From the sequence record PZ793367.1: DNA of 62,283 bases; one strand, written 5' to 3'. Of this stretch, positions 13,788 to 54,967 are shown piece by piece; positions within the stretch are counted from its first letter, which is position 1; each line of letters opens with the position of its first letter. The position numbers were made by a program, and so were the translations under genes. Below the pieces are notes generated by a model that saw nothing but the letters and a program-made list of their open reading frames with translations, did no database searches and had not been told where the DNA came from. The stretch comes from a phage.

Positions 13788-13912
13788 TTCCGGCACCAAA
13801 ATCGCTTATTATTTGTACAGAGAAAGACATCCAAAGTCTTGAGGGGAGCAGCATTGATGACTGGCAAAAAGAGGTTATTACTCAGCATACTGGTATCTCT
13901 AAATTTACTGGG

Positions 13913-14653
13913 GTGTACCAGTCTCAATCACTCGTACTCGCCCAGGCAGGCATCATTAGTATCGACCGGACTGACCAATTTGGTAACTTTAGCGACGGTA
14001 CTATCAGCGACGTCATCAGAGACACCATCGTACCTAACTATTCTCGCTGCACTTGCGCAATGGCAAGGAAGAGTCGAGGGCAGTACCGACTCCACTTTGA
14101 GGGAGACGTCAACATCGCCCTTTCCACTAATCAGGGGAATGTGATCGGCTTCTCGATGTTTGACTACGGCGGTCTGACGGTGCGTGCTGCGGTCAACCCG
14201 TACGGTCGTATCTTCTTCATCTCGGATACCGGATACGTCTATCAGGATTCCGTGGGGGCCAGTAACGATGGTGGTGAACGGTCATCAGTATTCCGTACAT
14301 CCTTCGCCAACCAGGGTGACCCGGATACCCGTAAGCGGTACCGCCGTATGGACATGAGTATCCGCGCGCAATCTTACCTTAACGCGCGTGTCGTTTTCTC
14401 GTACAATAAAGGCGCATCCACTCCGCAGGCATCGGTCGAATCTGGCCTGTTAGTGTCCGGCGGCGGTCGCTGGGATTTGTCGCTGTGGGGGCAGGTCTAC
14501 TGGGATGCCACGGAAAACCCGACAATCTCATCTGATATTGACGGCTTAGGTTTCGACATCAGCACGATGCTGTACATCCGGTCACGAATCCATCCGCAGT
14601 TTACCGCAGAGGATTTATCATTCGAATGGTCACCACGTAGAAAGGTACGATAA
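13913..14653 (+). CDS. virion structural protein, start codon uncertain
   Basis: 246-aa ORF beginning at GTG with no RBS; frame is open from 13721; see finding on candidate -1 frameshift. Confidence 0.5.
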   Translation: MYQSQSLVLAQAGIISIDRTDQFGNFSDGTISDVIRDTIVPNYSRCTCAMARKSRGQYRLHFEGDVNIALSTNQGNVIGFSMFDYGGLTVRAAVNPYGRIFFISDTGYVYQDSVGASNDGGERSSVFRTSFANQGDPDTRKRYRRMDMSIRAQSYLNARVVFSYNKGASTPQASVESGLLVSGGGRWDLSLWGQVYWDATENPTISSDIDGLGFDISTMLYIRSRIHPQFTAEDLSFEWSPRRKVR

Positions 14654-44854: not shown

Positions 44855-44869
44855 GCGCCCTTAGTTTTT
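44843..44869. terminator. bidirectional rho-independent terminator
   Basis: AAAGGGGCGC-ATAA-GCGCCC followed by TTAGTTTTT; stop codon TAA lies in the loop. Confidence 0.65.
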
Positions 44870-45056
44870 ACAGTATCAGCAGGAATTGAATACAACCTAC
44901 ACCTATCCCTACACACAATCCCGTAAACGCTCCCCCGATTGCTCCAAGCATACGCTCACGCCAGGTGACGCTATCGAATGCATCAGCCAGGATATACAGT
45001 GCTACACTGAATGCCAGGCAGGCGAATGAAGCTAAGATGATGGTTATAGATAACAT
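44868..45056 (-). CDS. small membrane protein
   Basis: 62 aa, two hydrophobic segments. Confidence 0.4.
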   Translation of the reverse strand: MLSITIILASFACLAFSVALYILADAFDSVTWRERMLGAIGGAFTGLCVGIGVGCIQFLLIL

Positions 45057-52827: not shown

Positions 52828-53003
52828 CGTGTTTTCTCCAGCCGCTCCAGTCGGTCAAATAGCGCGTCTATAGCATCATTGCGTACCAGCGGATCGACTT
52901 CTTGTTTGCGTCCGCACGTCAGGCAATAGACCTCATCTTTCAGAACCTGGCGTGCTGTAGGTTGCTCCACTGCCGCGCCGCACTTGCAATAAGCCCATGC
53001 CAT
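52824..53003 (-). CDS. small zinc-ribbon protein
   Basis: CKCGAAVEQ...CLTCGRKQ; internal ATG at 53003. Confidence 0.4.
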   Translation of the reverse strand: MAWAYCKCGAAVEQPTARQVLKDEVYCLTCGRKQEVDPLVRNDAIDALFDRLERLEKTR

Positions 53004-53004
53004 A

Positions 53005-53232
53005 TTATTTACCCCACCATTTCTTTTTCTTTTCCAGCCAGGCGCAAGCCTCGTTGATAGTGTTGTAATTCTGCGACATCTCGCCGTTGTAGCGTGCGAA
53101 ATATCCCTCATAAAATTTAACAATTTCGTTCCCGTTGCGATCCGCCCACACCGCCGAGTCGTTGCGACTGTCAAAGCTGGTCAGCTTAAAGCCGCCAGGT
53201 GTTAACGCTAAAGCCTGCTCGATGGTCATCAT
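53005..53232 (-). CDS. small protein of the xPxGW family
   Basis: ALTPGGFKL ... NEACAWLEKK pattern shared with family members. Confidence 0.45.
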   Translation of the reverse strand: MMTIEQALALTPGGFKLTSFDSRNDSAVWADRNGNEIVKFYEGYFARYNGEMSQNYNTINEACAWLEKKKKWWGK

Positions 53233-53423
53233 GATATTAATTCCCCTACCGTTACATTGAGCGCCGCAGCTAACTCGGTTAGCGTTTTCAGGCGCGGATT
53301 GTTCGCTTTAAGTACCATGAACAGAGCGCCACGTTTCCAGCCTGCGCGCCGTTCCACCTCACTAAGACTTATGGCCTCCCGCTCGGCCAGGTATTGCACA
53401 CGGGCTTTTAAATTAATCGCCAT
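53229..53423 (-). CDS. Cro/C1-type (XRE-family) helix-turn-helix regulator
   Basis: LSEVERRAGWKRGALFMV...LTELAAALNVTVGELI; ATG at 53423 sits 4 nt after a UUCG hairpin. Confidence 0.6.
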   Translation of the reverse strand: MAINLKARVQYLAEREAISLSEVERRAGWKRGALFMVLKANNPRLKTLTELAAALNVTVGELIS

Positions 53424-53429
53424 AGTTTG

Positions 53430-53443
53430 GGGGCCGAAGCCCC
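53430..53443 (-). other. GGGGC-UUCG-GCCCC hairpin in 5' leader of HTH regulator gene
   Basis: Identical core to hairpins at 3285 and 10395. Confidence 0.45.
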
Positions 53444-53451
53444 ACCCTTTA

Positions 53452-53637
53452 TTACTTTTCACCACCCTTAGCCACAGCATCACGCGACGTCTGCGCGTTC
53501 TCGGCGCGTTGCTGCGCGTTAGGTGAATCGGACTCAGCGCGCCCGGTTTGACCGGATACGTTTGGATTGTACCCGACGTTAGCAGAGCAACCAGCCAGCA
53601 GAGTAGCCAGGATGATAGCGATGATAGATTTAGACAT
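53452..53637 (-). CDS. small lipoprotein
   Basis: MSKSIIAIILATLLAGCS lipobox; AGGAG RBS at ATG 53637. Confidence 0.5.
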   Translation of the reverse strand: MSKSIIAIILATLLAGCSANVGYNPNVSGQTGRAESDSPNAQQRAENAQTSRDAVAKGGEK

Positions 53638-53699
53638 GTTTGAAGCTCCTATTGTTTGTGATGGAAAGGAGGCCGCCACCACGTCGACCATAAAATTTG

Positions 53700-53816
53700 T
53701 TAACGCCAGAGTTCTACCGGAAGACCGAACACGAACCGGAGAACCGCCCACACTGCAACCATTGACATCACCCACAATGCCAGGGAAAAGGCAAGACCTG
53801 TGATTATGCTTTGCAT
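53700..53816 (-). CDS. tiny transmembrane peptide (38 aa), unlisted in ORF track
   Basis: MQSIITGLAFSLALWVMSMVAVWAVLRFVFGLPVELWR; AAGG RBS; TAATG overlap with upstream peptide. Confidence 0.4.
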   Translation of the reverse strand: MQSIITGLAFSLALWVMSMVAVWAVLRFVFGLPVELWR

Positions 53817-53950
53817 TACAACCGCCTTAATTGTGTGATAATGTCGTTAAAGGTGGCGTAGTCGCACGTCATAACCCACAGCGCTGACAGTATGAAAATG
53901 GCGATTGACAGTTTAAGTGCCGCGCTTGCGAATACATTAAAACCAGCCAT
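53816..53950 (-). CDS. tiny transmembrane peptide (44 aa), unlisted in ORF track
   Basis: MAGFNVFASAALKLSIAIFILSALWVMTCDYATFNDIITQLRRL; shares ALWVM core with the downstream peptide. Confidence 0.4.
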   Translation of the reverse strand: MAGFNVFASAALKLSIAIFILSALWVMTCDYATFNDIITQLRRL

Positions 53951-54296
53951 AGATCCCCCCGCAGTGTTTCATTGCGTCGTACAGGTTAGAAAATGCCATA
54001 CCTTGTGTAAGGCCGTTCATGGTGTACCATTTACCGTTACGCTCGTCCAGCTTGATAGCCCGGTTTAACGCATTGTGATAAAGGGCGTTCCCACCGTACA
54101 CGCGGACCATGTAAACTTCCCCGTTGCGTGCGGTCACTGACACGGTGATCAGATGACCTTCCTCGGTACCCACCAGGGTAGCACCGTCACAAAAGTAAAT
54201 GTTATCGCCCTGGTGCTCGCTGCGCTCCAGCGGAAAGTCTGTAATATGCGCGACGGCAGCAATGATTCTCGGTAAGTTACTCACAGGAACCCCCAC
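53937..54296 (-). CDS. hypothetical protein (GTG start, uncertain)
   Basis: 119-aa ORF beginning at GTG without clear RBS. Confidence 0.35.
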   Translation of the reverse strand: MGVPVSNLPRIIAAVAHITDFPLERSEHQGDNIYFCDGATLVGTEEGHLITVSVTARNGEVYMVRVYGGNALYHNALNRAIKLDERNGKWYTMNGLTQGMAFSNLYDAMKHCGGIYGWF

Positions 54297-54446
54297 ATTT
54301 CACAAATATATTTCACGGTTGCCGATATTGCGATCAGCGTCATGCAAGCACTTAACACAGCTACTAAATGATCTTTCACAGGAAACCCCACAACGTTAAC
54401 GAAAGATAGCCCAGCGTTACATAGAAACCGATTGTTAATGTAGTGC

Positions 54447-54725
54447 TCACTGGCTGGCCTCCTTCACCATCCGGGCAGCTTCGCGCATTATCTTAGCGCG
54501 GTTGGCTACCGTGGACTTGATACCGTGCTGAGCTAACAGGCGGCGCGTCGTGGTAAACTGGTGCGGCGGGAAGATAGCCGCAAAAAAGTTGTCGTCGTAA
54601 CGCTCCAGTCGGTCGAGGTCCACCAGGTCAGCTACTGCGTGACGCATAGCCTTTGATACAAAGATTGACCAGTCGGTACCCTCCGGTGCCTTGCGTGCTA
54701 AGGTATTCATGACACCATCTCCCAT
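54447..54725 (-). CDS. hypothetical protein
   Basis: 92-aa ORF. Confidence 0.4.
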   Translation of the reverse strand: MGDGVMNTLARKAPEGTDWSIFVSKAMRHAVADLVDLDRLERYDDNFFAAIFPPHQFTTTRRLLAQHGIKSTVANRAKIMREAARMVKEASQ

Positions 54726-54967
54726 GCGTGATGAACAATCTTACCCATTGCCTCATCAAAGCTATTGCATTGCACACTATCGAGATTGCGGAACCGTACC
54801 AGGTTATCGCGGTAAGCAACAGCCATCAGGTGAGCGCCATAATACAATTCGATCTCAATAGAGTGACCTTTGTTAGCCTTTATCACCCAGCCGAGCGGCA
54901 ACACGTTAGCGCGCCCGGTGTTTTCTGCATAGGCCAGCGCTTCGGCTGGCGTTGGGTATTTGTTCAT
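54707..54967 (-). CDS. small protein of the xPxGW family
   Basis: NVLPLGWVIKANKGHSIEIELYYG ... FDEAMGKI. Confidence 0.5.
   Translation of the reverse strand: MNKYPTPAEALAYAENTGRANVLPLGWVIKANKGHSIEIELYYGAHLMAVAYRDNLVRFRNLDSVQCNSFDEAMGKIVHHAWEMVS

Follow-up and report, generated by a model that had tools for sequence, protein, structure and literature searches.

The small open reading frames (ORFs) upstream of a Cro-like regulator gene in the window, which here means the whole analysed stretch of 62,283 nucleotides (PZ793367.1), belong to a single string of translationally coupled early or accessory genes that includes several very small envelope proteins. Judged from codon comparison, the three ORFs of 44, 38 and 61 aa are real genes under purifying selection. 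The genes of the cluster are conserved and dispensable for growth in the laboratory, and their most probable effect is a change in the envelope of the infected cell. The reading that we favour, at a probability of about 0.38, is an accessory envelope function in which the lipoprotein would act in Llp-like exclusion or receptor masking. What is well supported is an improvement of the annotation and not a new mechanism.

Genome and Locus

The window is a complete Xuquatrovirus genome with 98% identity to that of E. coli phage PTXU04, and the phage is a virulent, PTXU04-like podophage. The locus (Table 1) lies in the early/accessory arm, within a long leftward series of small genes to which no function is assigned. 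As stated in an earlier reading of the sequence only, it lies far from the lysis genes, the genes for holin and endolysin being about 23 kb away in a separate transcription block. The same reading had placed the three ORFs correctly, and its structural description, small envelope proteins encoded upstream of an XRE/Cro-type helix-turn-helix (HTH) gene, stands: there are two predicted single-pass peptides and an outer-membrane-type lipoprotein, translationally coupled. Its description of the cluster as unannotated holds for some genomes and not for others. The 44-aa ORF is absent from the annotation of PTXU04 and both small ORFs are absent from that of Pondi, whereas PTXU04 gp72 is the 38-aa ORF and gp71 the lipoprotein, and HelliStehle has both small ORFs annotated. 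In a CRISPRi screen from 2025, PTXU04 gp71 was re-annotated as "phage lipoprotein."

The membrane and lipoprotein calls made here rest on hydropathy and on a lipobox regular expression. A scan for promoters and terminators gave a number of sites not above that in shuffled sequences. On the plus strand there is a promoter-like site at 53815–53842.

Table 1. Features of the gene string and their positions in the window
Feature	Position	Strand	Remarks
64-aa XRE/Cro-type HTH protein (PTXU04 gp70)	53229..53423	−	Pfam HTH_3, HTH_26
GGGGC-UUCG-GCCCC tetraloop hairpin	53430..53443	−	between lipoprotein stop and HTH start
61-aa prolipoprotein, predicted (PTXU04 gp71), slot 3 type A	53452..53637	−	signal peptide 1–16, lipobox LAGC, Cys17, Ser18
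Inverted repeat/RNA hairpin (GUGGUGG, 11 nt, CCAUCAC)	53658..53682	−	in 62-nt spacer before lipoprotein gene
38-aa single-pass membrane peptide, predicted (PTXU04 gp72), constant core	53700..53816	−	hydropathy and codon comparison
44-aa single-pass membrane peptide, predicted, slot 1 type A	53816..53950	−	hydropathy and codon comparison
gp73-like gene, 115 aa, soluble, no known family	53937..54284	−	last 14 nt overlap 44-aa start
32-aa hydrophobic ORF, candidate (36 aa from GTG at 54391)	54281..54379	−	on 95-nt insertion
24-aa hydrophobic micro-protein (VSTTLTIGFYVTLGYLSLTLWGFL)	54376..54450	−	GTG start; SD AAGGAGG 7 nt upstream

Evidence That the Small ORFs Are Coding

In about 19 related phage loci the changes are found mostly at third codon positions, and dN/dS is about 0.1–0.3. 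Variable columns at codon positions 1, 2, and 3 number 5, 2, and 19 for the 44-aa ORF, 9, 5, and 22 for the 38-aa ORF and 17, 17, and 36 for the lipoprotein. In the two alternative frames nearly every one of these substitutions would change the amino acid. For example, in the 44-aa ORF 15 codons show only synonymous changes and 7 change the amino acid, vs. 0–2 and 19 in the other frames; for the 38-aa ORF the numbers are 16 and 12 in frame vs. 1 and 27. The frames are open in every relative despite a DNA divergence of 20–40%, and overlapping stop and start codons connect the genes of the string. That the small ORFs are untranslated, conserved only as RNA or DNA elements or open by chance, is extremely improbable: the ORFs are very short, the one of 44 aa was overlooked by two annotation pipelines and the coding case is a comparative one, but the third-position bias and the contrast between the real and the two alternative frames in every ORF, the open frames at such divergence, the Shine-Dalgarno (SD) sequences and stop-start overlaps, and the lack of any Rfam match across 53000–54800 all speak against it.

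The Single-Pass Peptides and Their Upstream Neighbors

The sequence-only reading had assigned one hydrophobic helix and an SD-like sequence to each of the two small ORFs, and both are present. The Kyte-Doolittle maximum over 19 residues is 2.17 for the 44-aa and 2.23 for the 38-aa peptide, values of at least 2.1 being reached by just 5 of the 205 ATG-initiated ORFs of 30–70 aa in the six frames of the window. The SD-like sequences are GGGGGG, 4 nt ahead of the 44-aa ORF, and AAGGCGG, ahead of the 38-aa ORF. Between the 44-aa start and the stop of the preceding gene there is an overlap of 14 nt, and the 44-aa stop and the 38-aa start overlap in TAATG.

The 44-aa gene (dN/dS 0.03–0.16) is in relatives either absent or replaced by genes for three other, apparently unrelated, single-pass peptides. 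The 38-aa gene was found in all 17 Xuquatrovirus-like loci examined, with 15 full-length 38-aa copies, a copy with an internal deletion of 4 aa (L010) and one that is fused to the slot-1 start (L016); its C-terminal part SMVA.WA(V/I)L(R/S)FVF.LPV.LWR is invariant. The two peptides had been called paralogous, sharing an ALWVM core, for which we find no support. Their local alignment scores 30 vs. a shuffle mean of 22.7 (sd 4.5; p = 0.08), and pairs of their orthologues give p = 0.1–0.9; ALWVM is not conserved, being TLYIM in other 44-aa orthologues, occurring also as LWVA and being deleted in the 38-aa orthologue of L010.

A scan of GTDB genomes with the 38-aa peptide yielded a 12-residue identity (VWAVLRFVFGLP) to the second transmembrane helix of a 621-aa membrane protein from Bosea and related Rhizobiales, which we take to resemble HemY. 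Pfam gave no match, gene transfer between these bacteria and the phage is implausible because of the host range, and the identity was judged a coincidence or convergence at a boundary between transmembrane helix and cytoplasm.

Outside the coordinates considered previously, yet within the same coupled string, lies the ORF for the 24-aa micro-protein. It overlaps its neighbors on both sides, with its GTG start at the stop of the gp74-like gene and with its own stop at the gp73-like start. Thirteen of 14 loci encode the identical protein, with synonymous variation at 14 of its 24 codons; in the other two frames the same changes would give 0–2 synonymous and 11–13 amino-acid-changing codons. The annotations of PTXU04, Pondi, and HelliStehle lack it. 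The 24-aa and the 38-aa peptides, single hydrophobic helices that are constant across the phage group, are presumably located in the inner membrane.

The candidate 32-aa ORF is present only in this phage and in PTXU04, that is, in two near-identical copies, and the 95-nt insertion that carries it is flanked by a 17-nt direct repeat (54281–54297 and 54376–54392). The gp73-like gene has in all relatives its true start at a GTG or ATG overlapping the stop of the 24-aa ORF. Its product has no match in Pfam, PHROG, or PADLOC, and its AF2 single-sequence model (pLDDT 44) is of too low confidence to be used.

The Lipoprotein and Its Cassette

The canonical lipobox (LLAGC) noticed earlier is confirmed as LLAG/C, with Lys3, an 11-residue hydrophobic core, Cys17 and Ser at position +2. 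As criteria for a lipoprotein precursor a positively charged n-region, a core of 7–22 residues and a lipobox [LVI][ASTVI][GAS]C whose Cys is no more than about 35 residues from the start were used; the sequence offers M-S-K3, the core SIIAIILATL and L-A-G-C17. Nine of nine homologues keep the lipobox Cys and, but for an Ala in P0019, the Ser at +2. The match to Pfam LPAM_1 is under the cut-off (15.3 vs. 20), as is usual for this very short model. Only two ORFs with a lipobox are found in the window, the second being embedded out of frame within a structural gene, so that the signal of the 61-aa ORF is, as far as the sequence tells, the sole credible lipoprotein signal in the genome.

The mature protein begins with a conserved tether, CS.. 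VGY.PN.SGQTGRAESD, which is followed by a variable helix of 20 residues. The AF2 model has a signal helix, a 22-residue coil and one helix, and it is the coil and not the helix that is the invariant portion of the mature protein. Of dN/dS values between 0.1 and 0.6, the underlying changes cluster in the C-terminal helix. The distant homologue P0019 (58.8 bits) retains GY..N.SGQTGRAES and is also encoded directly upstream of an HTH gene.

The gene has a consensus SD (AGGAG) 8 nt before its start. The spacer before it shows indels of 1, 4, and 10 nt and there is therefore no longer lipoprotein ORF; one of 107 aa starting from GTG at 53775 was rejected, the indels upstream of the ATG in relatives not being multiples of three. 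In the hairpin of this spacer 42 of 42 cells pair in six sequences, with one compensatory and two wobble changes; the statistics are weak, 84 of 500 shuffles reaching the observed score. The tetraloop hairpin after the gene is not followed by a U-run on the coding strand. In L009 its stem is kept with a GCAA loop, and it is missing where slot 3 has another gene. On the plus strand this hairpin can be read as terminator-like; the T-run is not conserved in L009. Slot 3 is here a self-contained cassette of hairpin, consensus SD, 61-aa prolipoprotein gene and tetraloop hairpin.

The XRE-type HTH gene described downstream was recovered with Pfam HTH_3 (24.7 bits; cut-off 23) and HTH_26 (24.2 bits; cut-off 22), and homologues of the protein bear the same precomputed domains. 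The start annotated for gp70 in PTXU04 is too far upstream: the longer form is not conserved because Pondi has a 1-nt indel upstream of the ATG. An 84-aa HTH ORF from 53483 was rejected, indels upstream of the ATG in relatives being no multiples of three.

Exchange of Slots Among Relatives

Slot 1 is occupied by one of four types or is empty, slot 3 by one of three types, and the two are swapped independently between relatives, with the 38-aa peptide and the invariant 24-aa peptide remaining constant. This is at variance with the fixed three-gene module of two paralogues and a lipoprotein that had been proposed. Because the slots are independently exchangeable around the constant 38-aa gene, the products of the 44-aa gene and of the lipoprotein gene are unlikely to form an obligate complex, and from the independent assortment of slot-1 and slot-3 types there is no sign of the three proteins acting together.

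The exchange is precise. For example, homology between the window and HelliStehle stops exactly at the 38-aa stop and returns at the HTH start. The slot-3 replacements in relatives are unrelated to type A, and one of them has no Cys. Replacement polymorphism among otherwise collinear relatives, which is a mark of morons, is therefore found; a promoter and an intrinsic terminator of its own, which is another, are not, the coding strand having neither a sigma-70-like site around the cassette nor a U-run after the 3′ hairpin. Pondi has a partly different tail fibre and the same lipoprotein as the window, a comparison of slot 3 and tail fibre that covers four isolates.

Homology Searches

When all cluster proteins were searched against Pfam, PHROGs, NCBIfam, and PADLOC, a significant match was obtained for the HTH protein alone. 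IMG/VR returned PTXU04 itself only, and a word search of 5.8 billion proteins close relatives only. A HMMER profile search with the lipoprotein against 1.84 billion representatives gave one distant phage homologue and two spurious repeat proteins. In 50,697 phage genomes searched by tblastn, neither the 38-aa peptide nor the mature lipoprotein had a match beyond the phage group, the mature lipoprotein matching only Xuquatrovirus. GTDB genomes scanned with the lipoprotein gave nothing, and a PDB sequence search with its profile gave nothing below E = 1. Within the databases searched, the families of the cluster appear to be confined to this phage group.

Neither in sequence nor by profile do the cluster proteins resemble Llp, Cor, Imm, Sp, SieA, TrbK, or another exclusion protein, the matches being to the signal peptide only. 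For example, PHROG 1119, with which Cor was tested, gave E = 0.11 over residues 1–20 only, and for Llp and Cor there was no Pfam or NCBIfam match.

Function of the Cluster

In the favored reading the prolipoprotein would be cleaved and lipidated at Cys17 and, since residue +2 is Ser, would be sorted by the Lol pathway to the inner leaflet of the outer membrane. By the established Lol-avoidance rule, lipoproteins are sorted to the outer membrane when residue +2 is not Asp. There the anchor-proximal motif GY.PN.SGQTGRAESD could bind a host envelope protein from the periplasmic side, and the constant small peptides would act on a target in the inner membrane. The likeliest purpose would be an accessory one, by which the infected cell and its debris are made refractory to further phage adsorption or DNA entry. 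The HTH protein would be a separate early regulator outside this envelope function.

Superinfection exclusion, receptor masking or membrane perturbation, as suggested from the sequence before, are compatible with the non-essentiality, with the cassette-like replacement and with the precedent of T5 Llp. Llp jams FhuA, and lytic phages make, early on, small outer-membrane lipoproteins that face the periplasm and by which the phage's own receptor is blocked. In the CRISPRi-ART screen of PTXU04, which was performed in one host (BL21) at an MOI of 10, gp70–73 were scored "Not Fit"; it should be noted that the scores of gp71 (−1.11) and gp72 (−1.36) are nearer to the threshold of −1.1 than those of the neighbors (about −2 to −2.5). 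Slot replacement in otherwise collinear phages is the pattern expected for host-interaction or exclusion genes. Against exclusion are the lack of similarity to exclusion proteins, the independent assortment of the slot types and the finding that Pondi combines a partly different tail fibre with the same lipoprotein. Moreover, the lipoprotein gene (53.5 kb), unlike llp and cor, has no tail-fibre gene beside it, gp03 and gp04 being annotated at about 2.4–4.8 kb, and non-essentiality would suit many other accessory roles just as well.

One such role would be host take-over or counter-defence, the helices of 24, 38, and 44 aa, and perhaps the lipoprotein, binding sequence-specifically to host membrane proteins and inhibiting them; a transporter or protease, an enzyme of division or of the cell wall, or a membrane-bound anti-phage system could be the target. 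The protein-level constraint on these almost wholly transmembrane peptides is extreme and therefore points to a specific helix-helix partner rather than to generic membrane damage, and early-region context, non-essentiality in BL21 and hypervariable accessory slots fit as well. A precedent is the levivirus M protein, a single-gene lysis protein of 37 aa that reportedly blocks MurJ. We consider this role rather unlikely, since no homology to a known inhibitor or anti-defence protein was found in Pfam, PHROGs, NCBIfam, or PADLOC, no target can be named, and the screen, although not designed to probe toxicity of these genes, reported none. That the swapped slots mirror different host strains or defences and not the exclusion of other phages is similarly doubtful.

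A further reading is a previously unrecognized, modular "envelope toolkit" of virulent podophages, which we regard as distinctly unlikely in its entirety. The invariant 24- and 38-aa micro-proteins would each lock onto a conserved inner-membrane machine of the host, and the two hot-swap slots would hold strain- or receptor-specific effectors. One of these would be a sequence-orphan family of outer-membrane lipoproteins that jams an outer-membrane protein from the periplasm via GY.PN.SGQTGRAESD, Llp-like in function and independent in evolution, and acting through a short linear motif and not a folded domain.

A lysis accessory, in which the lipoprotein would supply the o-spanin that the phage lacks or disrupt the outer membrane in another way, and the small peptides would modulate holin timing in an antiholin-like manner, is very unlikely. 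No spanin is annotated beside holin and endolysin, the genome has no other credible lipoprotein ORF, and there are weak PHROG matches to Rz-like spanins (E 0.06–0.13), but these span the signal peptide only. The gene is in another transcription block, 23 kb from the lysis cassette; its neighbors of 38–44 aa are essentially all membrane and include no i-spanin with a periplasmic domain; the Pro-rich or Cys features that mark o-spanins are missing from the mature part; relatives have unrelated proteins instead, one without Cys; and gp71 was not "Fit" in the knock-down screen. Membership in the two-component spanins calls for an o-spanin gene inside, overlapping or beside that of an i-spanin, which has an N-terminal transmembrane segment and a periplasmic domain of periplasm-spanning length, and for a place in the lysis cassette with a requirement in lysis. 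It was rejected on architecture, for want of both an i-spanin partner and a lysis-cassette location.

Just as improbable is a truncated alanine-zipper lipoprotein of the Lpp/OprI type that would mix or compete with host Lpp and so alter the tethering of the outer membrane to peptidoglycan. NCBIfam NF040598 (Lpp/OprI family) matches residues 4–56 with E = 6e-5, but its 23.4 bits are far under the cut-off of 43. Signal peptide and lipobox are nearly identical to those of E. coli Lpp (LLAGCS[SA]N; hhalign probability 80%), but this match ends soon after the lipobox and that to OprI has a probability of 3.6%. The C-terminal segment is predicted to be helical and is Ala/Gln/Arg-rich, but the helix has fewer than three heptads and is the least conserved part; and the peptidoglycan-linking Lys is not conserved, the C-terminal residue being K, W, Q, R, or N in the homologues. 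Family membership was rejected on the low score, the confinement of similarity to signal peptide and lipobox, and this variable C-terminal residue.

No part of phage genomes is annotated as poorly as the small membrane proteins, and comparative codon analysis recovers them here: the 24-aa gene is missing in three of three deposited relatives and the 44-aa gene in two of three. The locus, with constant micro-proteins and two swapped slots, is compact and genetically tractable in a phage for which a genome-wide knock-down system is available. If the lipoprotein is an exclusion or receptor-masking factor, it would identify the receptor pathway of Xuquatrovirus, and the Llp/Cor class would gain a sequence-independent family; should host membrane enzymes turn out to be inhibited by the peptides, the latter would count as new peptide inhibitors.

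Comparison With Known Systems

The single-helix peptides of the string, of 24–44 aa, share with T4 Imm, HK97 gp15, and P22 SieA, which block DNA entry at the inner membrane, that they are small phage inner-membrane proteins with accessory roles; those proteins, however, have about 80 or more aa and two or more transmembrane helices and are unrelated in sequence. In size, in having a single helix and in the constraint along it, which implies a specific membrane-protein partner, they resemble the bacterial small membrane proteins AcrZ, MgrB, KdpF, and CydX and the leviviral single-gene lysis peptide LysM (25–50 aa), to which they have no sequence relationship.

With the Rz/Rz1 spanins the cluster has in common a small outer-membrane lipoprotein encoded beside genes for membrane proteins. 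It differs from them in that there is no i-spanin with a periplasmic coiled coil, that it lies outside the lysis cassette, that the mature part is not Pro/Cys-rich and that in relatives non-lipoproteins replace the lipoprotein. Morons of temperate phages, such as lambda bor, which encodes an outer-membrane lipoprotein and has signals of its own, are similar to the discrete type-A insert with its strong SD and flanking hairpins, present or replaced; here, however, neither a sigma-70 promoter nor a U-tailed terminator was detected, the phage is virulent, and the gene is inside a co-directional string.

The lipoprotein may be compared with T5 Llp and with Cor of T1, phi80, and N15, which are outer-membrane lipoproteins of superinfection exclusion. 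Similarity to these ends at the signal peptide, the gene is away from that for the receptor-binding protein, and the mature part is predicted from the model to be a flexible tether with one helix rather than a folded domain. All are nevertheless small lipoproteins of E. coli phages with precursors of about 60–80 aa and a predicted location at the inner leaflet of the outer membrane; plaques form without them, and related phages exchange them.

Three ORFs with Coding Signatures

The cluster comprises ORFs for a 44-aa peptide, a 38-aa peptide and a 61-aa lipoprotein, followed by an HTH gene (table), and, to the extent that comparing sequences can show it, all three small ORFs are translated. Compared were four isolates and thirteen metagenomic contigs of the phage group and three loci of a more distant sister group. 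Variable columns fall at codon positions 1/2/3 as 5/2/19 in the 44-aa ORF, 9/5/22 in the 38-aa ORF and 17/17/36 in the lipoprotein gene, and pairwise dN/dS values are mostly 0.1–0.3, similar to those of the HTH gene. A non-coding reading of the small ORFs is essentially excluded: in the true frame 15–16 codons show synonymous-only variation, whereas in alternative frames the same substitutions would be synonymous in 0–2 cases and amino-acid-changing in 19–27. The longer, mechanically listed versions of the lipoprotein and HTH ORFs are excluded by indels upstream of the start codons that are not multiples of three.

The observation made in the sequence-only reading is real and mostly accurate. 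Its positions for the three ORFs are exact. Each small ORF has, as it claimed, one hydrophobic stretch (Kyte-Doolittle 19-residue maxima 2.17 and 2.23; at least 2.1 is reached by 5 of the 205 ATG-ORFs of 30–70 aa in six frames of the whole genome), the 61-aa product has a lipobox (K3, an 11-residue hydrophobic core, L-A-G-C17, Ser18), and the gene downstream (64 aa) scores above the Pfam gathering thresholds for HTH_3 and HTH_26. The ORFs were also said to be unannotated. This fits the 44-aa ORF in PTXU04; the 38-aa ORF is PTXU04 gp72, the lipoprotein is gp71, and HelliStehle annotates both small ORFs. A re-annotation in the supplement to the CRISPRi-ART study already lists gp71 as "phage lipoprotein" and gp70 as DNA-binding protein (PMC11879866).

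A lipobox scan of the whole genome gave a single other candidate, an ORF (MTGKKRLLLSILVSLNLLGC...) embedded in a different reading frame within the large gp16-like structural gene. Pondi and PTXU04 have this ORF intact as well, its conservation being inseparable from that of the enclosing gene.

Features of the cluster and of other regions of the window
Feature	Position	Strand	Remarks
ORF with lipoprotein signal	13857-14144	+	inside gp16-like gene
62-aa ORF	44868-45056	-	position approximately that of PTXU04 gp47
gp69 counterpart	53005-53232	-	directly 3' of HTH gene
HTH gene	53229-53423	-	64 aa
gp70 region	53229-53483	-	covers start annotated in PTXU04
UUCG tetraloop hairpin	53430-53443	-	after lipoprotein stop codon
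61-aa lipoprotein ORF	53452-53637	-	consensus AGGAG upstream; 62-nt spacer from 38-aa ORF
7-bp inverted repeat/hairpin	53658-53682	-	ahead of lipoprotein SD; conserved
38-aa ORF	53700-53816	-	start within TAATG overlap with 44-aa stop
44-aa ORF	53816-53950	-	start 14 nt before gp73-like stop; G-run ahead of start
95-nt insertion	54281-54392	-	17-nt direct repeat at both ends; carries 32-36-aa hydrophobic ORF
24-aa ORF	54376-54450	-	unannotated, hydrophobic; AAGGAGG SD, GTG start

Genomic Setting

The window is a complete PTXU04-like genome rotated by 245 nt. Its region of interest shares 97.9% identity with Escherichia phage PTXU04 (genus Xuquatrovirus), 82–87% with phage Pondi and about 74% with HelliStehle/Bas95 over the aligning 74% of the query. 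From 45 to 62 kb every gene is on the minus strand, in a long series of small function-unknown genes, and the cluster is about 23 kb away from holin and endolysin. The 62-aa ORF, with its two strongly hydrophobic stretches, encodes a further small membrane protein; it is situated at the far end of this leftward block of genes. The gene directly 3' of the HTH gene resembles the Pondi/HelliStehle version and is clearly unlike PTXU04 gp69; since the divergence from gp69 lies in mid-protein and both flanking genes show about 98% identity, a recombination boundary adjoins the cluster.

A Constant Core with Exchangeable Slots

The order on the coding strand is gp74-like, 24-aa ORF, gp73-like, slot 1, 38-aa ORF, slot 3, HTH. 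The 38-aa peptide is present in 17 of 17 Xuquatrovirus-like loci, and its C-terminal part, SMVA.WA(V/I)L(R/S)FVF.LPV.LWR, is invariant save for one R-to-S change in one locus. Slot 1 holds the 44-aa peptide in six loci; elsewhere it holds one of three apparently unrelated single-pass peptides (38, 38 and 52 aa) or is empty. The sole common feature of these proteins is M(A/V)GF at the start, which the overlap with the gp73-like stop forces. Slot 3 holds the 61-aa lipoprotein in seven loci (two further database proteins belong here), a different 57-aa protein with conserved L(I/M)GC in nine, and a 32-aa peptide without Cys in one. The occupants of slots 1 and 3 occur in many combinations, so that the fixed three-gene module proposed earlier does not hold and nothing points to a complex in which all three proteins are obligatory.

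Nor are the two small peptides recognizable as paralogues: their best local alignment scores 30 versus 22.7 ± 4.5 for shuffles (p = 0.08), and orthologue pairs give p = 0.1–0.9. In the remaining 44-aa orthologues the supposedly common ALWVM reads TLYIM; further 38-aa orthologues have LWVA or LWAG at this place, and L010, one of the loci compared, has lost it.

The most constrained product in the neighbourhood is that of the 24-aa ORF, which is absent from the PTXU04, Pondi and HelliStehle annotations. Thirteen of 14 loci encode exactly the same protein, although 14 of the 24 codons vary synonymously; the ORF's start overlaps the preceding stop, and its stop overlaps the gp73-like start. The 95-nt insertion, restricted to the window phage and PTXU04, is bounded by the plus-strand repeat TCACAGGAA[A/C]CCCCACA and looks like a small-gene insertion via recombination at stop-start junction sequence.

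The Lipoprotein Cassette and the HTH Start

Homology to HelliStehle ends at the 38-aa stop codon and restarts at the HTH start. In all six sequences the 7-bp hairpin can pair, one of the changes being compensatory and two giving wobble pairs, though the statistics are weak; the tetraloop hairpin, likewise conserved, has in locus L009 a GCAA loop on the same stem. Neither is followed by a U-run, and therefore both probably serve RNA stability or processing rather than termination. The 7-bp inverted repeat may alternatively be operator-like.

As deposited, gp70 starts about 57 nt too early: in Pondi a 1-nt indel interrupts the N-terminal extension, and HelliStehle lacks it. Guides against gp70 in the published CRISPRi screen therefore sat on the wrong start, which makes the gene's "Not Fit" call uninformative.

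Homologues and Predicted Structure

Homologues of the small proteins beyond this phage lineage were found neither in IMG/VR, 50,697 phage genomes and GTDB genomes nor in a 5.8-billion-protein collection or a full HMMER scan of 1.84 billion representatives. The sole distant lipoprotein homologue (P0019, 58.8 bits), from the sister phage group, keeps the motif GY..N.SGQTGRAES, and its gene is again directly upstream of an HTH gene. In the AlphaFold2 model of the lipoprotein a signal helix is followed by a 22-residue coil and one 20-residue helix (pLDDT 62); the coil is invariant, the helix variable.

A 12-residue piece of the 38-aa peptide, VWAVLRFVFGLP, recurs exactly in TM helix 2 of a 621-aa membrane protein, apparently HemY-like, in Bosea sp. 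(locus L026, 3001-3036) and the related Rhizobiales loci L028–L030. This is judged coincidental or convergent.

Possible Functions

In the PTXU04 knock-down screen in BL21, gp70–73 were "Not Fit", gp71 (−1.11) and gp72 (−1.36) being closer to the −1.1 threshold than their neighbours at about −2 to −2.5 (PMC11879866). The 44-aa and 24-aa ORFs were left out of the screen because they were not annotated. Any explanation has to accommodate dispensable genes in an early region, cassette swapping between near relatives and an outer-membrane-type lipoprotein with a strong SD.

The earlier suggestion of a membrane-directed role in exclusion, receptor masking or host perturbation is reasonable, if unproven. 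We tentatively favour, with a probability of about 0.4, an accessory envelope function, most plausibly one like that of Llp of T5: the lipoprotein would jam an outer-membrane component from the periplasm, and the constant peptides would target a partner in the inner membrane. A close rival, itself rather doubtful, is that the peptides serve general host take-over or counter-defence. A mimic of Lpp is unlikely from architecture and scores: the match to the Lpp/OprI family (NCBIfam) is sub-threshold (23.4 bits versus a cut-off of 43) and reflects signal-peptide and lipobox similarity and Ala/Gln-rich composition, the C-terminal Lys not being conserved. Architecture and scores likewise speak against a spanin or lysis role. 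Matches to spanins, Cor and TrbK extend over the signal peptide only.

With its modular slots and invariant micro-proteins, the locus lends itself well to experiments. On present evidence, though, it does not represent a new system class; its families are sequence orphans that belong to a known kind, namely phage accessory small membrane proteins and lipoproteins.
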